A DNA stretch of 64,000 nucleotides from Candidatus Thalassarchaeum sp. (GCA_022449345.1 JAKURL010000004.1:19981-83980), one strand, 5' to 3'. Shown: positions 14,475 through 47,244, counted from the stretch's first letter. Notes: generated from the letters alone by a model not told the origin. Translations and numbers: made by a program.

Positions 14475-14592
14475 GTCCGAAGTTTGATTATCCGATTCCC
14501 TTAGGACAATTCAGGGGAGCTTAGTGCTGAGAGGTCATCGAAAGGTGACGACCCTTTGACCTGATCTGGGTAATTCCAGCGGAGGGAGAGAA

Positions 14593-16086
14593 ATGGATAC
14601 GAACATCGCATATGGATTGATGATTGCAACGCTTGGTTTCTTTGGCTATGTCGGATACCAAGCGGCGACAGAAAAAGAACTCGACACCGACGAATATTTG
14701 TCGGCTAGGGGGTCACAAAGTTGGCTGAGAATTGGACTCAGCCTTTTTGCTTCAGGCATGGGCCTTTGGCTGCTGTTTGGCCCTTCAGAGGTAGGATATT
14801 ACGGAGGATTCTGGGAAGTACTTGGGTACGCTATTTCTGCTTCTACACCTTTCCTATTACTCGCATACTTGGGCCCCAAAATACGCTCAATTCTGCCTGA
14901 TGGCGTGACACTGGCAGATTATGTTCGTATACGATTGGGTAGACCTATGCAAATCTACGTGGGCCTCATTTCTATACTCTACATGTTCACTTTCCTATTC
15001 GCTGAATTTACTGCGATTGGTAGGGCAATGAACATACTTTCAGGTATGGAACCATTGTACCCAATCCTCCTAGTGGCCTTAGTGACTGCTGCATACACCA
15101 GTTATGGAGGCTTACCTGCTTCACTACGAACCGATCGCTGGCAAGGTTGGTTGGCCCTATGGTTACTGATTGCCTTACTTTTGATTGTCTTTGGAGGAGA
15201 TGTCAACACCATGATGGAACAAGCCAAGGCACACACGCCAATTCATGCAGAGGAATGGGGTTGGGAACACGGTAGTATCTCTGATTTGAACAAAGATTCT
15301 TTTGAAGCAGGTGTTGCATTAATTCTTGCTATTACGGCAGCCGAGATGTTCTCTCAAGGGAACTGGCAACGCGCCCATGCGGCTGAAAATGATGAGGCAT
15401 TAGTGAAGGGAGCTTGGTTCGCTGCAGCATTGGTATTCCCTTTGATGTTCATAATGGGGTTCCTCGGAACTGTTGTAGCAGGTCAAGGTGCTGTGGAAGA
15501 TCCTTCAGCGGCTTTCTTCTATTTGATTGAAGACGTGCATGTGTTCATCATAGCACTATTTGTTGTTCTAGGGGTCGCGTTGATTTGTTCAAGTGCCGAT
15601 ACATTGCAAAATGCCATCGTTGCTTCAATCAGTCGCGATTTAGCAGATGGGAAAATGGGTCTGAAAACAGCACGCATTGCCACCTTGGCTCTCCTCCCAT
15701 TGGCGATTTTGCTTTCTCTATGGGGTGTCGAAAATGGATACAGTATCTTTGCGATTTTTCTTTTTGCAGATTTGCTAGCGGCTGCAACCGTTCTACCCGT
15801 TTTACTTTCTCTATGGGGACGTGTTGACTCACGTGCTGCATTAGTGGGTGCTATTTCCGGACTCCTTTCAGTAATCGCCTATGGTGTATATGAGCCGGCA
15901 ACCAGTTATGATGGAATTCAACAATATGTCATGTACATCATCTATCCAACGATGGATCCAGTCAATGGGGGTGCGATATCTCCAGTAGATGGTGGCCTGA
16001 CGAATTTGTGGGTTTTCGTATCTGCACTATTGGGTTCTGGCCTTGTCACTGTGCTGGGTTCATACGCTTTGCATGATGAGCAATAA
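14593..16086 (+). CDS. Sodium:solute symporter family (SSF) transporter; possible proline/amino-acid uptake
   Basis: 497 aa with about 13 TM helices. The N-terminal region (YLSARGSQSWLRIGLSLFASGMG) is SSF-like. Confidence 0.7.
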   Translation: MDTNIAYGLMIATLGFFGYVGYQAATEKELDTDEYLSARGSQSWLRIGLSLFASGMGLWLLFGPSEVGYYGGFWEVLGYAISASTPFLLLAYLGPKIRSILPDGVTLADYVRIRLGRPMQIYVGLISILYMFTFLFAEFTAIGRAMNILSGMEPLYPILLVALVTAAYTSYGGLPASLRTDRWQGWLALWLLIALLLIVFGGDVNTMMEQAKAHTPIHAEEWGWEHGSISDLNKDSFEAGVALILAITAAEMFSQGNWQRAHAAENDEALVKGAWFAAALVFPLMFIMGFLGTVVAGQGAVEDPSAAFFYLIEDVHVFIIALFVVLGVALICSSADTLQNAIVASISRDLADGKMGLKTARIATLALLPLAILLSLWGVENGYSIFAIFLFADLLAAATVLPVLLSLWGRVDSRAALVGAISGLLSVIAYGVYEPATSYDGIQQYVMYIIYPTMDPVNGGAISPVDGGLTNLWVFVSALLGSGLVTVLGSYALHDEQ

Positions 16087-22551: not shown

Positions 22552-23700
22552 TCAGGAGTACCGCTCGCTGAAGTCGCGCATAAACTCGACTAATGCCTTG
22601 ACCGACTCAATCGGACATCCATTGTAGAGGCTAGCTCGAATGCCTCCGACCGAGCGGTGGCCCTTCAGGCCGCCTAATCCTGCTGTTTCTGCTTCGGATA
22701 GGAATACACTCTCTAACTCCTCATTCGCGCATCGCCAAGTCACGTTCATGACCGATCTAGATGATTTTTCTGCGTGGGGAATCCACATCTCGTCGCTATC
22801 CAGTTCTTCGTAGATAAGAGATGACTTTGCTCGATTTCTGGCGATTGCACCTTCAAGTCCTCCATTTTCTTCTAGCCATTTGAAAACACAATCTAGAACG
22901 AAGATTCCGAATGTGTTTGGCGTATTGAATAGTGACCCCTTTGAAGCATGAACCGTGTAATCGAGCATTGTTGGTAGCCGACCAGCATCGGAGTTCTCCT
23001 GCGCTCTAGCCAGTGCCCATGGGGAGAGAATAACCAGTGTGACCCCAGAGGGTCCGAGGTTCTTCTGTGCTCCTGCGTAGATGATATCGTGAGCCGAGAC
23101 ATCGATTGGAACTCCCGCTATATCTGAAGATGCATCAACCACTCGAGGCTTACCTCCAGAATCAGGTAAATGGTGGTACTGCGTCCCCATCAAGGTGTTG
23201 TTTGAGGTGTAGTGAAAATAGATTGAGTCCTCAGAAACAGTGTAGTCTGAGTCGCTTGGTACGGAGCGGAAGCCGTTTTCTGAATCGCTCCAAATATTGT
23301 GGGGTATACCAACTCGATTTGCTTCTCCGATAGCCTTCTTTGACCAGCCCCCCGTCTCTAAGAAATCGGCTTGTTCGTCTGGCTTTAGTAGGTTCAAGGC
23401 GGTCATGTAGAATTGCAGTGATGCACCGCCTTGCAGGAATAAAATCGTGTAATCATCAGGAACGGATAGCACTCTGCGTATTCTAGCCATTGCGCTATCC
23501 ACAACCGATTGGAAGGTGGCGCTTCGGTGACTTATCTCGCAGAGGCCAAAGCCGCTGCCGTCGAGATTTGGTAAAGCCTCCTGAACCTCTTGCATTACTG
23601 ATAGAGGAAGCACCGCCGGGCCAGCGCCGAAGTTGTGGATGCGTGACTGTCCCACGCCTTGTGGGCGTGCTTTGCGGTCTTTCAGCACTTCTGCGCTCAA
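22552..23700 (-). CDS. serC: Phosphoserine aminotransferase
   Basis: 382 aa. The N-terminus FGAGPAVLPLSVMQEVQEAL and the PLP-lysine region match SerC. Confidence 0.85.
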   Translation of the reverse strand: MSAEVLKDRKARPQGVGQSRIHNFGAGPAVLPLSVMQEVQEALPNLDGSGFGLCEISHRSATFQSVVDSAMARIRRVLSVPDDYTILFLQGGASLQFYMTALNLLKPDEQADFLETGGWSKKAIGEANRVGIPHNIWSDSENGFRSVPSDSDYTVSEDSIYFHYTSNNTLMGTQYHHLPDSGGKPRVVDASSDIAGVPIDVSAHDIIYAGAQKNLGPSGVTLVILSPWALARAQENSDAGRLPTMLDYTVHASKGSLFNTPNTFGIFVLDCVFKWLEENGGLEGAIARNRAKSSLIYEELDSDEMWIPHAEKSSRSVMNVTWRCANEELESVFLSEAETAGLGGLKGHRSVGGIRASLYNGCPIESVKALVEFMRDFSERYS

Positions 23701-23738
23701 AGGGTTGGATTGAAGCCATATGCTTCAGCCGAAGGGTC

Positions 23739-24341
23739 GTGCTTCGCATAGGCTTGGTCATGCTTCAGGGTGCTCGCCATACACACATGGCAGCACTTCA
23801 TGTGGCGGCTGAGCAATCCGGAATTGAAATCGAAATACACGAATTACGCAAAGCTGTAGACCTAGTGAATGCTCAGCCGCATGCAATTGTTTTCCCTGGA
23901 GGCGAATCTACTACCATGCGGCTTACTGGCAACGACCCTGCTTCCAGTCTACTGCCAGCCTTGTTTGACTGGATTCGTGAAGACAGTGCTCGCCCCGTGC
24001 TTGGGACCTGCGCTGGAGCAATTCTACTGTGTGATCCTCAAGACGGCGGCGACCGCCTCGTCGCCGCCGAAATCGACCGCAATGCCTACGGCCGCCAAGC
24101 CGATTCTTTCCAGAGTGCGCTGGATGCCAAAATCTTGGATCGACAATTCCCAGGTGTTTTCATTCGCGCGCCAAGATTCACCAGCGTCGGTGATTCAGTC
24201 GAGGTTGTTGTAACACATGATTCCGAAGTTGTCGGAGTCAAGCATGGAAATCGACTAGCCCTTACATTCCACCCAGAATTATCTGAAGATTCTGGATTCC
24301 ACGAATGGCTTTTGCAGACTGCGAAAGAGGTGACTGCGTGA
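23739..24341 (+). CDS. pdxT: Pyridoxal 5'-phosphate synthase glutaminase subunit PdxT (class I glutamine amidotransferase)
   Basis: It aligns along its full length with PdxT: RIGLVMLQGA, PGGESTTM, GTCAG (catalytic Cys), RNAYGRQ, GVFIRAP, FHPEL. The probable start is the GTG at 23739; the listed ORF start at 23490 would overlap serC. Confidence 0.85.
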   Translation: MLRIGLVMLQGARHTHMAALHVAAEQSGIEIEIHELRKAVDLVNAQPHAIVFPGGESTTMRLTGNDPASSLLPALFDWIREDSARPVLGTCAGAILLCDPQDGGDRLVAAEIDRNAYGRQADSFQSALDAKILDRQFPGVFIRAPRFTSVGDSVEVVVTHDSEVVGVKHGNRLALTFHPELSEDSGFHEWLLQTAKEVTA

Positions 24342-25480
24342 CATTTTCGGTTCGACTTCCAAACATCCCAGAGCTACCAGAAGCAGCCGTTGCAGACGAT
24401 ACAGAGGGTTGTATCCAATGCCAGATGGGTTCGAAACTTGTCCTTTTCATCACCGGTCACTGCCATTGGATGTGTGATTACTGTCCGCTGTCAGAAAACC
24501 GCCGTGAAATTGACTGGATGTACGCTAACGAACGCCGAGTCGAGATTGGCGATTGGCAGGCTGTAATCGAAGAGGCTCGAGCGATGAATGCAACCGGGGC
24601 TGGAATTACCGGTGGAGATCCGGTCATGGCCCGAGAGAGGGTGCTTGAGGCCTGTAAGATTCTCAAGTCTGAATTCGGTGATGGCTTCCATTTACACATG
24701 TACACAAGCATACCGTTCAAGGAAGAATGGGCCAGTGAATTTGCAGATGCTGGATTGGATGAAATCCGCTTCCACTTCCTCGATTTAGAGACTGAAAAAT
24801 ACGTCGAAACAATGGCGGCTTGCGTCGAATCTGGGATGCTAACCGGTGTTGAGATCCCATGCGAACCCGACAAGGAAGAGATGCTGATGGAATTGCTTGA
24901 GACGATGCGTGAGATGCCCGTTCAATTCTTCAATCTAAATGAGTTGGAGATTACTGTCGGAAATCATGACAATATGGAGGTCCGTGGATTCAACCTTTCA
25001 GATGAAATCACCGCAGGAGCCGCAGGTTCCGCTGAATTAGCAATTCGAATGAGAGACCGAGTAATGGCTGCTTCAATCGGTGCACCAGATCTTGAAGATG
25101 GCATTGTACGCGAACCCTACCCTTACCATCTCAAGTTCTGCACTGCGACATACAAGGATAGCGGACAGTTACGCCGCCGCTTCCTTCGCCGTGGTGAACA
25201 TACTATTTCTCCTCACGAAATCCTAACTGAGGATGGCACTCTTCTCTTCGGGGCTATTGAGTGTGGCGAGGAAGCCTCAATAGATTGGATGGAGGAAATA
25301 AACACCGAAACAGGTCTCCCTCGTAGGTTCATGTTGTATGATAATGAAAACCAGCGAATCGAACTTCCCTTGTCGATGGCTGAGGAATTGGTTGGAGAAA
25401 TCGATGCACCAATTTCTCTAGTGGAAGTGCATCCAACCCACGAGAGATTGGAGATGACCGTGGTTTACCTAAATCGTTGA
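24338..25480 (+). CDS. Radical SAM enzyme, PflA-like/COG2108-like family
   Basis: The CX3CX2C cluster motif is HCHWMCDYCP, followed by a TIM-barrel-like alpha/beta region. The GTG at 24338 overlaps the pdxT stop as GTGA. Alternative starts are 24305 or the ATG at 24425. Confidence 0.7.
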   Translation: MTFSVRLPNIPELPEAAVADDTEGCIQCQMGSKLVLFITGHCHWMCDYCPLSENRREIDWMYANERRVEIGDWQAVIEEARAMNATGAGITGGDPVMARERVLEACKILKSEFGDGFHLHMYTSIPFKEEWASEFADAGLDEIRFHFLDLETEKYVETMAACVESGMLTGVEIPCEPDKEEMLMELLETMREMPVQFFNLNELEITVGNHDNMEVRGFNLSDEITAGAAGSAELAIRMRDRVMAASIGAPDLEDGIVREPYPYHLKFCTATYKDSGQLRRRFLRRGEHTISPHEILTEDGTLLFGAIECGEEASIDWMEEINTETGLPRRFMLYDNENQRIELPLSMAEELVGEIDAPISLVEVHPTHERLEMTVVYLNR

Positions 25481-25511
25481 GTTCATTTACTCTCGAGATA
25501 AGTAGCAGGGT

Positions 25512-27353
25512 ATGCCGGTACGGACGTACAATGCCGAGGCGACTGGGGTCGACCCTTTCCGTCGCCTCTCCGCATCTCAGGTCAATCTCTGGAAGTCCTG
25601 TCCTCGGCAGTGGTATTACGCCTATGAAGTGAGATTGAAAGGTCCTATGCCGCCGCATATTATTCGCGGAAATGCGGCTGAGGAATGCATCTGTAGAGTT
25701 CTCAGGGATTCTCCATCCTTAATCACTCCAGAAGCGCCTGATACTCTCATATCGCCATTGAATGAGGACGGTGCTCCTGATTGGGAAGATGAACAAAAAT
25801 GGATGGCTGCTAGGTTGTCGGCTAGGCCGTCAGAAGATTGGCCGACAAGCCGCGAGGCATTGATGGAGTGGGCAATAGCTCGAGTTGAAGTCCACTTTGA
25901 CCGATGTTGGGATGCAGCAGTGGAGGATTGGCAGGCGACCCAAAACAGAGCCGGTTCACTGGAAGACATCGAGCCAGAAGAATGTCGAGAAATGATACTC
26001 GAAGGGATCAGAATGCACCTAGATGAAGTCGAGAAGTGCTTGGAGGCCAATGGTGGTCCTAATCTTAAATCTTGGAGGGCAGGCGAAGCTCGTGATGAAA
26101 TTCCAGCACCTGATGGTTTCCCACTACATTGGAAAACTCCTCATCCATCAGCACAGAGTCATGGTAAGATGACTTGGTGTGAGGCTTGGGAACTTGCCAG
26201 ACCTTGGTTTGTAGATCCCGATTCAAAGTCATTCAGCCAAACGACTTGCATTCCGGAAGGTTGGTTTCAAGGAGAATACGACTTGGTATATCGCTGGGAT
26301 GGTTCGATCAATATCGTTGACATCAAGGCTAGCATAGGGAAGGGCGACCGCTCATTCAGTTATATGGAACAATTACGCCTCTATGCTTGGCTCTGGTGGA
26401 AATCTCACGCACGTTCAGAGCAAGTTTCTTCTCTGGAGATTTGGTATCTCGGTACCGGCACTGTAAAGTCAATCGATCTTCCACAAATTTCAGAGCTGGA
26501 AGCATACGAATCCGAGCTTGGAGAATTGTATCAACTTCTACGAGCGGGTAATCCTCCAATCGACAAATGCCCGCCAAACCCTGCTCCTCTGAGACATTTT
26601 GACGCCGGAGGCGTTCCAGCCCAGCAGCACATCGATTCAGACCCTCTAGCACGCTGCAAGGGATGTGATTACAGAGGATTCTGTCCCAAAGGTAACCACG
26701 ACCTAGAGCTCACTGAAGAGAGGCGAATAGAACGCCTTGGTCACGCATGGCCAATCACTCCACTAGGTGAAATTGAGCCTAGAGTCGAGGCAATTGGCGA
26801 GGTGATTGGTCTATCTGGTCCAGAATTGCTTCAAGATGGTTCCATCAAGGTCCATTTCAGATTGCAAGATGGATACGACCGTGCTAAGGTACAGCCTGCA
26901 TACAATGGGGGTCCAAAGAGGATCAGCCGGTCGATTACAGAAGGAGTCCGAGTAAAGATCTCAAACGCCTTACCTAGCCTATGGAGGGGTGAATTACAAC
27001 TCAATCTCGATGCAGATTCTGAGGTTTCATTGGCGGAAGAAGATGAAATCGCCCCTGTGGTTGATGTCGAGACGAGAGTAAGCATAGTTGCCCGTGTTTG
27101 GTCGATAGATTCCTTTCCCGACGGGATTGGTAATACTAGATGGGCTGCAACCCTAGTGGATGCGACCGGTTCGGCTCAGATTGTTGCATTCAAGCAATTC
27201 ATTCCATTGAGTGCTGCAGCAGTCAAGCGCGGAGACACAATAGCAATCCTAAACGGTGAGAAAGGAGAATGGGGGGGTCGCCCTCAGGTCAAGTGTGGAC
27301 CGGGTAGCAAAGTTGTGATTGTATCCGATGCAGAGGATTCGCCTGAATTCTAA
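25512..27353 (+). CDS. Cas4/RecB-family PD-(D/E)XK nuclease with a four-Cys iron-sulfur cluster and a C-terminal OB-fold-like region
   Basis: 613 aa. The N-terminal Cys motif SASQVNLWKSCPRQWYY is Cas4/AddB-like. The nuclease motifs are YDLVYRWDGSINIVDIKAS (D..D-x-K) and MEQLRLYAWL (QxxxY). A three-Cys motif sits at CKGCDYRGFCPKG. The last 170 aa look like tandem OB folds (VARVWSIDSFPDG...QIVAFKQ). Confidence 0.7.
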   Translation: MPVRTYNAEATGVDPFRRLSASQVNLWKSCPRQWYYAYEVRLKGPMPPHIIRGNAAEECICRVLRDSPSLITPEAPDTLISPLNEDGAPDWEDEQKWMAARLSARPSEDWPTSREALMEWAIARVEVHFDRCWDAAVEDWQATQNRAGSLEDIEPEECREMILEGIRMHLDEVEKCLEANGGPNLKSWRAGEARDEIPAPDGFPLHWKTPHPSAQSHGKMTWCEAWELARPWFVDPDSKSFSQTTCIPEGWFQGEYDLVYRWDGSINIVDIKASIGKGDRSFSYMEQLRLYAWLWWKSHARSEQVSSLEIWYLGTGTVKSIDLPQISELEAYESELGELYQLLRAGNPPIDKCPPNPAPLRHFDAGGVPAQQHIDSDPLARCKGCDYRGFCPKGNHDLELTEERRIERLGHAWPITPLGEIEPRVEAIGEVIGLSGPELLQDGSIKVHFRLQDGYDRAKVQPAYNGGPKRISRSITEGVRVKISNALPSLWRGELQLNLDADSEVSLAEEDEIAPVVDVETRVSIVARVWSIDSFPDGIGNTRWAATLVDATGSAQIVAFKQFIPLSAAAVKRGDTIAILNGEKGEWGGRPQVKCGPGSKVVIVSDAEDSPEF

Positions 27354-27362
27354 CTTATTTAG

Positions 27363-27448
27363 TGGCGCCGAGAGAGGGATTTGAACCCCCGCGTCCAAGG
27401 GACAGTGGATTTCGAATCCACCGCAATACCGGGCTATGCGATCTCGGC
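27363..27448 (-). tRNA. tRNA-Ser (anticodon CGA), long variable arm, CCA encoded
   Basis: The reverse complement GCCGAGA...GGUGGAUUCGAAAUCCAC...GUCCCUUGGAC...GGGGGUUCAAAUCCCUC UCUCGGC G CCA folds as a cloverleaf with a 7-nt anticodon loop UUCGAAA. Confidence 0.85.
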
Positions 27449-27503
27449 AGCAAGCCGACCACCTGCGATTTGGTCATAAGTCTGACTCGCTCCCCTTGGG
27501 TTG

Positions 27504-27707
27504 ATGCGAATCACGGTTATTCACGACGATGACGAGCCTAGTATTGTTGAGAGTGATGAACCGATTAGCATCACTGAGGTGTTGGATAGACTAAACATCG
27601 CTAGTTCAACAGTCCTTGCTGTTCTAGGCGAAACCATTGTCCCTCATTCATCTACAATTACCGATGATATCGAGATCGAGTTAATCGTCGTCTCAAGCGG
27701 CGGTTAG
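27504..27707 (+). CDS. ThiS/MoaD-like beta-grasp sulfur-carrier/SAMP-like protein ending in Gly-Gly
   Basis: 67 aa, MRITVIHDDDE...GETIVPHSSTITDDIEIELIVVSSGG. The ...IVP...D.IE...GG pattern is the ThiS signature. Confidence 0.55.
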   Translation: MRITVIHDDDEPSIVESDEPISITEVLDRLNIASSTVLAVLGETIVPHSSTITDDIEIELIVVSSGG

Positions 27708-46005: not shown

Positions 46006-47244
46006 TTATGGCCAGGCCAGAGCAGGCCACGTATCGGGTTCTCCTGACTGCCAATCGATGGTTTCGATCAGGGAAAGAACTTCATCGGCGCTACCTAGAT
46101 TGTCTTCGATTTGTCTCCTGTGAAGCCACCCCTTTAGTCGCCCAAGTCTAACTCCTGCTTCCAAGCCTGTGATTTGCATCAAATCTTCTCCACCAACCAA
46201 TGGCTTGTTGCCTGCAATCAATGGTTCAACTTCAGAAGCGGCTTGGGCAAAATCCTCTCCTAATTTACCGAAGTATGCCACAACTTCCTGCTTCATCGAG
46301 TCCGATAAGGCCGAGTTAAATCTTCTAAACGACTCAACCTCATGATTTAGGTCAGCGATTTGCAATTCGTGCAAAAAGGATATTGTGGAAGTCTCATCAT
46401 TAGAAAGTCTAAGAATATTCTTCAGATGGCCGGCAAGTTTTGTCCCTGAGCGATTATCATTTCTGCACAAAATAGCAAGATCGACTGCAGGGATTCCCGA
46501 AAACCGCTCAAATCCAGAGGCTCCTCCAAAAATGGTTTCGGGAATCACCTGAATTAGTATATTGGAATTTGCCATTAACTCAATCACTTCTGTGCGGCCG
46601 GTTCCTTGCATTATTCTCGATAACTCAGCCCACTTCCGCTCAGATGATACCTTGCTAAGCATATGCAAATTATCTCCAATCGCCGCTTGTAATTCCGAAT
46701 CTAGGCTTCTAGATCCTAATTTACCTGCGTCGAGGAATCGGAAAGCCCTCATGATTCTCAAGCCATCCTCAGAGATTCTCTCGTGGGCATTTCCGACCGC
46801 ACGGACTACTCCGGCCACAAGGTCCTCCATTCCACCAAATTCATCGATTAAGTCGCCACTTCTAGGGTCTAGGGCCATGGCGTTGATTGTGAAGTCCCGT
46901 CGAGCCAAATCTTCTATGATATCATCGCCAAATTCGACCTCGTCTGGTCGCCGACCATCTCCATAGGATCCATCAGTGCGCAGAGTAGTGTCTTCCCAAG
47001 ATTTTTCACTTTCCTCATCGAGCACCAGAATCGTTCCAAACGCCGCCCCTACGGGGATTGTCTTGTCAAATAATTCCGTTACAACTTCAGGGCGAAGATT
47101 TGTTGCAATATCCATTTCACCGGGCTCAAGGCTTTGCAGTGAATCTCTAACCCAACCACCAACAACCCAAGCATCACCTTGATCGCATAGCCTGTCTAGT
47201 ACTCGCCTATCGGAGGCTGTGAGTCGGCTCAGTAGGTCGCCCAT
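46006..47244 (-). CDS. cca: Class II (bacterial-type) tRNA nucleotidyltransferase/poly(A) polymerase-family enzyme, putative CCA-adding
   Basis: The N-terminal head domain has VVGGWVRDSL (the GGxVRD signature) and ...DIATN. A neck/body region follows. Confidence 0.65.
   Translation of the reverse strand: MGDLLSRLTASDRRVLDRLCDQGDAWVVGGWVRDSLQSLEPGEMDIATNLRPEVVTELFDKTIPVGAAFGTILVLDEESEKSWEDTTLRTDGSYGDGRRPDEVEFGDDIIEDLARRDFTINAMALDPRSGDLIDEFGGMEDLVAGVVRAVGNAHERISEDGLRIMRAFRFLDAGKLGSRSLDSELQAAIGDNLHMLSKVSSERKWAELSRIMQGTGRTEVIELMANSNILIQVIPETIFGGASGFERFSGIPAVDLAILCRNDNRSGTKLAGHLKNILRLSNDETSTISFLHELQIADLNHEVESFRRFNSALSDSMKQEVVAYFGKLGEDFAQAASEVEPLIAGNKPLVGGEDLMQITGLEAGVRLGRLKGWLHRRQIEDNLGSADEVLSLIETIDWQSGEPDTWPALAWP

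Follow-up and report, generated by a model that had tools for sequence, protein, structure and literature searches.

A predicted pdxT-radical SAM bicistron conserved across the Poseidoniales, with a probably separate Fe-S nuclease gene downstream

Results

pdxT and a radical SAM gene overlap in a Thalassarchaeum locus

A 64,000-nucleotide (nt) stretch of DNA from Candidatus Thalassarchaeum sp. (GCA_022449345.1, JAKURL010000004.1:19981-83980), referred to below as the window and numbered from its first letter, carries three consecutive plus-strand genes. These are pdxT (23739..24341), encoding the glutaminase subunit of pyridoxal 5'-phosphate (PLP) synthase, a radical S-adenosylmethionine (rSAM) gene (24338..25480) and a gene for an iron-sulfur (Fe-S) nuclease (25512..27353). 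The host belongs to the Thalassarchaeaceae (Marine Group IIb) in the order Poseidoniales, and the database proteins most similar to those of the window carry the name Candidatus Thalassarchaeaceae. The original prediction, made from the sequence alone, described the genes as one apparent operon and suggested either a nucleic-acid modification, repair or defence module or a pdxT gene translationally coupled to unrelated neighbors.

Both pdxT (200 amino acids, aa) and the rSAM gene (380 aa) begin with GTG. As originally described, the two share the tetranucleotide GTGA, in which the pdxT stop codon TGA (24339-24341) overlaps the rSAM start codon GTG (24338-24340). A Shine-Dalgarno (SD)-like GAGGTGA, read directly from the sequence, lies within the 3' end of pdxT on the plus strand (24327..24333), 4 nt before the rSAM GTG. 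With another in-frame start codon, the ATG at 24305, the rSAM protein would be 391 aa long; the GTG at 24338 was preferred because nearly all homologues are 380 aa long, because relatives begin at the equivalent codon (ATGA) and because of the GAGGTGA motif upstream.

The pdxT-rSAM pair is conserved throughout the Poseidoniales

Relatives were collected by scanning one genome per GTDB species with an alignment of the rSAM family, which gave 80 loci, all from the Poseidoniales and covering both Thalassarchaeaceae and Poseidoniaceae. Enough upstream sequence to evaluate pdxT was available in 75 of them and enough downstream sequence to evaluate the nuclease gene in 64. When the window proteins were mapped onto the loci, six apparent absences of pdxT proved to be overlapping genes. 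With these included, pdxT was found directly upstream of the rSAM gene in all 75 evaluable species-representative loci, in both families. A start/stop overlap of 4 nt was observed at 42 of 76 distinct pdxT-rSAM junctions, and nearly all remaining gaps were at most 48 nt. SD-like 5-mers were present at 46 of the 76 junctions, compared with 4% among 14-mers drawn at random from these loci, a 15-fold enrichment which argues for maintained coupling. The gene that follows rSAM varies by lineage, being the nuclease gene, GrpE, tRNA-Val or a periplasmic binding protein gene.

Taken together, pdxT and the rSAM gene appear to constitute a bicistronic operon with coupled translation, fixed throughout the Poseidoniales, the transcription unit itself being predicted from sequence. 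The suggestion that pdxT is translationally coupled to a neighbor therefore held for the rSAM gene.

The tight junction was broken in a single evaluable locus (L088, 6542-8013, Poseidoniaceae), where pdxT and rSAM are about 1.4 kb apart. One apparent PdxT-rSAM fusion was also encountered (P0274, L177 3001-3816; SNO plus Radical_SAM, 271 aa). It was rejected as evidence of fusion because it lacks the PdxT His and Glu residues as well as the rSAM N-terminus and because its scaffold is fragmented, with neighboring genes also split; an assembly artefact or a deletion is most likely.

PdxT is a canonical glutaminase without a neighboring pdxS

The window PdxT is a full-length family member, as had been predicted. 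It scored 139.8 bits against the TIGR03800 equivalog cut-off of 105.55, spanning residues 3-192 of 200, and 126.4 bits against 27 for PF01174 (SNO). The translation from the GTG start reads MLRIGLVMLQGA, and is 38% identical end to end to Bacillus subtilis PdxT. In the alignment with that reference the catalytic triad is kept, with the Cys of GTCAG and the His and Glu of FHPEL aligning with C79, H170 and E172. With its GGESTT and RN-x-GRQ motifs and the triad, the protein resembles the glutaminase of known PdxS/PdxT synthases (Pdx1/Pdx2, for example YaaD/YaaE of B. subtilis). It differs from them in gene context, since pdxT is coupled translationally to an rSAM gene and does not adjoin pdxS.

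The absence of an adjacent pdxS, noted originally, was confirmed: none was found in the 64-kb window by a motif scan or by tblastn with B. subtilis PdxS, nor within the approximately 8 kb fetched per side, contig permitting, in the 80 related genomes (89 Poseidoniales loci examined). The genes are also unlinked in Methanocaldococcus jannaschii, with pdxS at MJ0677 and pdxT at MJ1661, a counter-example to the statement in the original prediction that the two are almost always adjacent in archaea. In Methanosarcina acetivorans, native PdxS dodecamers were found without bound PdxT, and the authors concluded that the interaction is transient (PMC11708016); linked genes are therefore not required. 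A statement in a Red Sea metatranscriptome study lists pdxS among highly expressed genes on Marine Group II (MG-II)/Thalassoarchaea contigs (PMC5069720). In view of the transient contact, and of pdxS being reported from MG-II in that statement, an unlinked pdxT is not in itself anomalous. The window PdxT is most likely an ordinary PLP-synthase glutaminase.

The rSAM enzyme belongs to an uncharacterized archaeal family

The motif HCHWMCDYCP, pointed out in the original prediction, is present in the rSAM protein and constitutes a CX3CX2C motif. The protein scored 39 bits for PF04055, its only match in the Pfam set searched. P0001, with which it shares 98% identity, and every listed homologue carry PF26257 (DUF8061) next to PF04055 in their precomputed Pfam annotation. 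In an end-to-end alignment with 55 diverse family members, all 26 invariant columns were kept in the window protein. Across these 56 sequences, the invariant residues include the N-terminal C25-x2-C28, the SAM-cluster cysteines C42, C46 and C49, the motifs GITGGDP, H120-x-Y122, GLDEIRFH and NLNELE, and C268, K273, Q277 and R281. A second Fe-S site with three cysteines (C25, C28 and C268) is probably present, as suggested by the invariance of these three extra cysteines.

An exhaustive search among 50%-identity representatives returned 1092 clusters at E <= 1e-3 and 247 at E <= 1e-30, and a profile search placed family members in Thermoplasmata, Methanomassiliicoccales and other Euryarchaeota. 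The names given to members do not go beyond "radical SAM protein" and IMG's [quoted passage not shown]. By its sequence, the window enzyme is a member of this widespread, uncharacterized archaeal PF04055 plus DUF8061 family.

The label "PflA-like" did not hold, as TIGR02493 gave 18.8 bits against a cut-off of 231.75. Among the other named families with which the original prediction proposed a comparison, no QueE model appeared among the NCBIfam matches, and the family is probably COG2108. Further named NCBIfam models were also far from their cut-offs (archaeal MoaA about 23 of 325 bits, PqqE 26 of 381). No RaSEA-named model was among the NCBIfam matches, in a library not confirmed to hold one, and no arcS-like neighbor was seen in the fetched Pfam gene tables; we take RaSEA to be TIGR01210/COG1244. 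RaSEA offers a parallel as an archaeal rSAM enzyme complexed with a partner enzyme, ArcS, in a nitrogen-transfer pathway, archaeosine synthesis (PMC11298593). The present case differs in that no arcS lies nearby and the partner would be PdxT, not ArcS.

In the structural comparison, the AlphaFold2 model of the rSAM protein (pLDDT, a per-residue confidence score, 92.7) has a partial-barrel core and a C-terminal beta-alpha-beta-beta-alpha-beta domain corresponding to DUF8061. MoaA, pyruvate formate-lyase activating enzyme (PFL-AE), viperin, NifB, QueE and TYW1 are 9-18% identical to it, and the N-terminal CxxC, the residues C268/K273/Q277/R281 and the C-terminal DUF8061 domain lack a counterpart in the matched rSAM structures. 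Weak KamA/EpmB-type and lysine 2,3-aminomutase (LAM) similarities were no better than other rSAM matches. A profile search of the PDB found only MoaA (E about 1e-4).

The nuclease gene is a lineage-specific neighbor

As originally described, the nuclease is 613 aa long and encoded on the same strand, with its ATG at 25512 beginning 31 nt past the rSAM stop codon. It was found after rSAM in only 23 of 64 evaluable loci, all from one Thalassarchaeaceae sub-clade, and was absent from the locus in all Poseidoniaceae. The rSAM proteins of loci with the nuclease are 66-90% identical to that of the window, and those of loci without it 49-66%. The gap between rSAM and the nuclease gene can be as short as 8 nt or as long as 614 nt. 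In L012 (9137-9698) and L025 (5492-6140), both Thalassarchaeaceae, the two are separated by insertions of about 540-615 nt, and there the promoter-like motif described below stays with the nuclease gene.

The protein combines an Fe-S PD-(D/E)XK nuclease of the Dna2/AddB/Cas4 type with two RPA-like oligonucleotide/oligosaccharide-binding (OB) folds. The nuclease domain covers residues ~1-400, with a long helical insertion at ~100-230, and the OB folds occupy residues ~405-605. Pfam returned PF12705 (PD-(D/E)XK) and, weakly, an OB fold at the C-terminus. Residues C30, D257, D270-x-K272, Q287, Y291, C382, C385 and C391, invariant in 22 homologues, are the PD-(D/E)XK and Q-x3-Y motifs and the four cysteines of Cas4/AddB/Dna2 Fe-S nucleases. 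The window protein differs from Dna2, AddB, AdnAB, Cas4 and ACE1 nucleases in lacking a helicase domain and in having the two C-terminal RPA-like OB folds and the long helical insertion. It may process single-stranded DNA ends or flaps in replication or repair. The family counts 489 database proteins and appears restricted, the best 120 all being at least 54% identical.

With respect to Cas4, the nuclease has the PD-(D/E)XK motifs and the four Fe-S cysteines, but not the size, model match or CRISPR linkage: it is 613 aa long with two OB folds, and its best PADLOC Cas4 match was 25 bits over 70 residues. A tandem-repeat scan found no CRISPR-like tandem array in the window. The Pfam gene tables of relatives contained no cas gene; no dedicated cas search was made in the window. 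A defence system was accordingly rejected as a candidate, as PADLOC gave no match for PdxT or rSAM and only weak Cas4/DruK superfamily matches for the nuclease, and no CRISPR-like array was present.

The nuclease gene is convergent with a minus-strand tRNA-Ser(CGA) gene (27363..27448; ARAGORN, Rfam RF00005 54 bits). The original prediction had placed this tRNA correctly on the opposite strand, and its spacing from the nuclease stop codon is 9 nt instead of the 10 nt given there. Of the loci checked, all 8 with the nuclease gene have this tRNA gene just past it, seven on the opposite strand and L011 on the same strand, and all 6 without the nuclease lack it.

Promoter-like elements precede pdxT and the nuclease gene

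The upstream sequences were compared among relatives. In the window, a candidate promoter region for pdxT-rSAM, GGTTGGATTGAAGCCATATG (23703..23722, plus strand), lies at -36 to -17 from the pdxT GTG in an alignment made by eye. It is a clade variant of the GGTTCATTT-type element that many relatives carry at -30 of pdxT; variants are found both in the window's clade and in Poseidoniaceae. The strict motif was present at -33 to -28 in 25 of 75 distinct pdxT upstream sequences, with variants at the same position in other clades. Before internal genes, the counts at -33 to -28 were 2 of 30 for rSAM, 1 of 16 for DeoC and 0 of 9 for PAC2.

A second promoter-like element, resembling a TATA box and B-recognition element (BRE), is GTTCATTTAC (25481..25490, plus strand), 31 to 22 nt before the nuclease ATG. 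Across 30 distinct nuclease upstream sequences, an RTT[ACG]A[TG] hexamer begins at -30 to -32 in 28, and its distance from the start codon is unchanged where the rSAM-nuclease gap is 539-614 nt. An SD-like 4-mer precedes the nuclease start in 3 of the 30.

The element at about -30 is a candidate promoter (TATA/BRE-like) of leaderless or short-leader genes that stand first in their unit. Since it precedes pdxT and the nuclease gene and is rare before internal genes, pdxT-rSAM and the nuclease gene are best regarded as separate units. The description of all three genes as one operon is thus not supported, as the nuclease gene has a conserved promoter-like element of its own and is not conserved alongside the pair. 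A genome-wide promoter consensus was tried and rejected: GTT[CGA]AT.. was positioned before open reading frame (ORF) starts in 19 of its 87 window occurrences and lay mostly inside genes. The claim is accordingly restricted to positional conservation at pdxT and the nuclease gene across genomes.

A class-V aminotransferase gene adjoins pdxT

On the other side of pdxT, the window carries serC on the minus strand (22552..23700), divergent from pdxT and encoding a PLP-dependent 3-phosphoserine/phosphohydroxythreonine transaminase (NF003764, 431 bits against a cut-off of 253; PF00266 match). The coordinates are those of the longest ORF, and relatives are called about 15 aa shorter. A class-V aminotransferase gene lies less than 400 nt upstream of pdxT in 67 of 68 evaluable Poseidoniales loci, of the SerC type in 29 and of another type in 38. 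It looks as if one aminotransferase has been displaced in place by another. In four loci (L036, L037, L041 and L050), serC and pdxT-rSAM share a strand. Further class-V aminotransferase genes were seen at L076 5961-7145 and L040 6067-7290, both on the minus strand.

The surroundings consist of stable housekeeping synteny (serC, deoC, an S51 peptidase gene, PAC2, Nop10, eIF2-alpha and ribosomal protein genes), with no sign of an island.

The link to pdxT is specific to the Poseidoniales

Outside the order, 87 loci of the same rSAM family were inspected (seven single look-ups and 80 metagenome loci), and neither pdxT nor a class-V aminotransferase gene was near rSAM in any of them. The pdxT-rSAM link is specific to the Poseidoniales. 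The commonest neighbors elsewhere were orotidine monophosphate (OMP) decarboxylase on one side and, on the other, convergent NusA/L30e/RpoA'' at the end of the RNA polymerase operon. These belong to one large clade, and as single-clade synteny they were set aside as uninformative about function.

Isoprenoid and lipid genes (GHMP kinase, AcnX, UbiD, UbiX, UbiA and PcrB) adjoin rSAM in 6 of the 87 loci, too few for a function to be assigned from them. A distant member of 529 aa, P0385, has an N-terminal NUDIX domain fused to the DUF8061 rSAM, with YfcD and isopentenyl diphosphate (IPP)-isomerase-type models closest and both below cut-off. This fusion and the mevalonate/lipid genes by rSAM in L094-L096, L100, L102 and L104 give a faint hint of a nucleotide- or isoprenoid-diphosphate substrate. 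A pdxS gene, 70% identical to B. subtilis PdxS, was observed about 3 kb downstream of rSAM at a contig end in one of the 87 loci (L153, 8173-8748), probably by chance.

Discussion

The original prediction described the gene anatomy accurately. The locus is probably best explained as juxtaposed independent housekeeping units rather than a three-gene system, with a coupled pdxT-rSAM pair, a separate nuclease gene and a PdxS partner encoded elsewhere in the genome. The promoter-like element about 30 nt before pdxT would drive the bicistron. The rSAM gene lacks such an element and instead has an SD-like motif together with, in most genomes, the 4-nt overlap. PdxT would hydrolyze glutamine and pass the ammonia to PdxS. 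The rSAM enzyme, regarded here as a housekeeping enzyme, would use its SAM-cleaving CX3CX2C cluster for radical chemistry of its own on a small molecule or RNA, and may share expression with PdxT, not a reaction. The nuclease gene would be transcribed from its own promoter, probably into a leaderless or short-leader mRNA, and single-stranded DNA held on the two RPA-like OB folds may thread the Dna2/Cas4-type Fe-S core of its product.

Several points weigh against this explanation. When two genes overlap tightly throughout an order and stay together as the genes downstream change, a functional link is often the cause, so that shared expression may underestimate the relationship of PdxT and rSAM. 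The aminotransferase gene, nearly as constant beside pdxT as rSAM is, gives a hint of a theme around PLP or amino groups, to which the rSAM enzyme could belong. The placement of PdxS elsewhere in the genome draws on the single statement cited above (PMC5069720), and the probable second Fe-S site on the invariant cysteines. Read-through from rSAM into the nuclease gene is possible, and the promoter and leaderless readings derive from sequence conservation.

A rival view is that PdxT and rSAM are functional partners, either with PdxT supplying ammonia to the rSAM enzyme or with the latter requiring PLP or belonging to the PLP pathway, in which case the class-V aminotransferase, pdxT and rSAM genes would make up a PLP/amino-group-transfer module. 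The invariable pairing, which shows 4-nt overlaps in both families whatever gene follows downstream, would fit such a partnership. So would the aminotransferase gene, represented at one position by two subfamilies and in four loci on the same strand, and an rSAM family without assigned function whose weak similarities include KamA/EpmB-type enzymes and LAM, no better than other rSAM matches. Yet the same family occurs in 87 loci outside the Poseidoniales without either gene nearby, PdxT scores as an ordinary equivalog, and the sole apparent fusion is defective and on a fragmented scaffold. The glutaminase activity of B. subtilis PdxT needs PdxS for its activation, which also counts against a PdxT-rSAM partnership, as does the report, in the statement already cited, of pdxS in MG-II (PMC5069720). 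We therefore consider functional partnership unlikely. The more specific proposal that PdxT has a second client in the Poseidoniales, docking on the DUF8061 rSAM enzyme and feeding it ammonia, or that the rSAM enzyme acts in a PLP-linked step with the class-V aminotransferase, is quite improbable. If a PdxT-rSAM partnership did exist, it would be the first glutamine-amidotransferase/radical-SAM pair and would give the first functional handle on the rSAM family.

Conversely, the pairing might be neutral inherited synteny with an incidental overlap. The restriction of the link to one order would agree with this, as would the conservation within Thalassarchaeaceae of other housekeeping gene orders around the locus. 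Against it, both the downstream flank and the distant neighbors have changed between the families and among sub-clades while the pair persisted in every evaluable locus and the aminotransferase gene in all but one, and the enriched SD-like motifs at the junction argue for maintained coupling. An incidental arrangement is also judged unlikely. Joint action of glutaminase, rSAM enzyme and nuclease in nucleic-acid modification, repair or anti-virus defence is very improbable. In the window, as in one sub-clade of the Thalassarchaeaceae, the three genes do share a strand and are separated by short gaps, and the nuclease has weak matches to Cas4 hidden Markov models. Synteny of the trio in relatives, raised by the original prediction as a test of its module, is nevertheless largely lacking, with the nuclease gene confined to a minority of loci, its distance from rSAM variable and its promoter-like element its own. 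PADLOC, which includes prokaryotic viperins, returned nothing for rSAM or pdxT. What the rSAM protein shares with viperin is the generic rSAM core, at 12% identity, and NifB, LAM and PFL-AE score almost as well. The window, in which cas genes were not searched for, shows no CRISPR-like tandem array, and the surrounding block is housekeeping synteny rather than an island.

With the independent-units explanation preferred, current understanding is not overturned, and the comparative evidence reduces the proposed module, which would have been a new kind of system, to ordinary parts; the order-wide pdxT-rSAM bicistron is the only new point. It is flanked by the class-V aminotransferase gene, and no other consistent genomic association of the PF04055 plus DUF8061 family was found here. 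The upstream element at about 30 nt of first-in-unit genes may help to define Poseidoniales promoters. The nuclease, Dna2/Cas4-like and equipped with RPA-like OB folds, is specific to one sub-clade of the Thalassarchaeaceae.

Additional features of the window

Beyond the tRNA gene, a plus-strand ORF of 68 aa (27501-27707) encodes a protein with a Gly-Gly end and weak ThiS similarity (PF02597, 19.7 bits against a cut-off of 22.5; NCBIfam gave no match), possibly a ubiquitin-like protein of the ThiS/MoaD/SAMP type. At its 3' end the ORF overlaps with the end of the opposite-strand S51 peptidase gene, and ORFs of 66-67 aa are called at the equivalent place in relatives (L001 13740-13943, L007 12730-12930). 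A thiamine pyrophosphate (TPP) riboswitch, here in an archaeal genome, was detected at 14503-14604 on the plus strand (RF00059, 57.8 bits against a gathering score of 54.3), directly preceding and slightly overlapping a membrane-protein-like ORF of 497 aa (14593-16086). On the minus strand, positions 46006-47244 encode a 412-aa protein with a PolyA_pol head domain (PF01743, 113 bits) and tRNA nucleotidyltransferase domains, a domain set associated with CCA-adding enzymes of the bacterial/eukaryotic type (class II); such an enzyme would not be expected in an archaeon.

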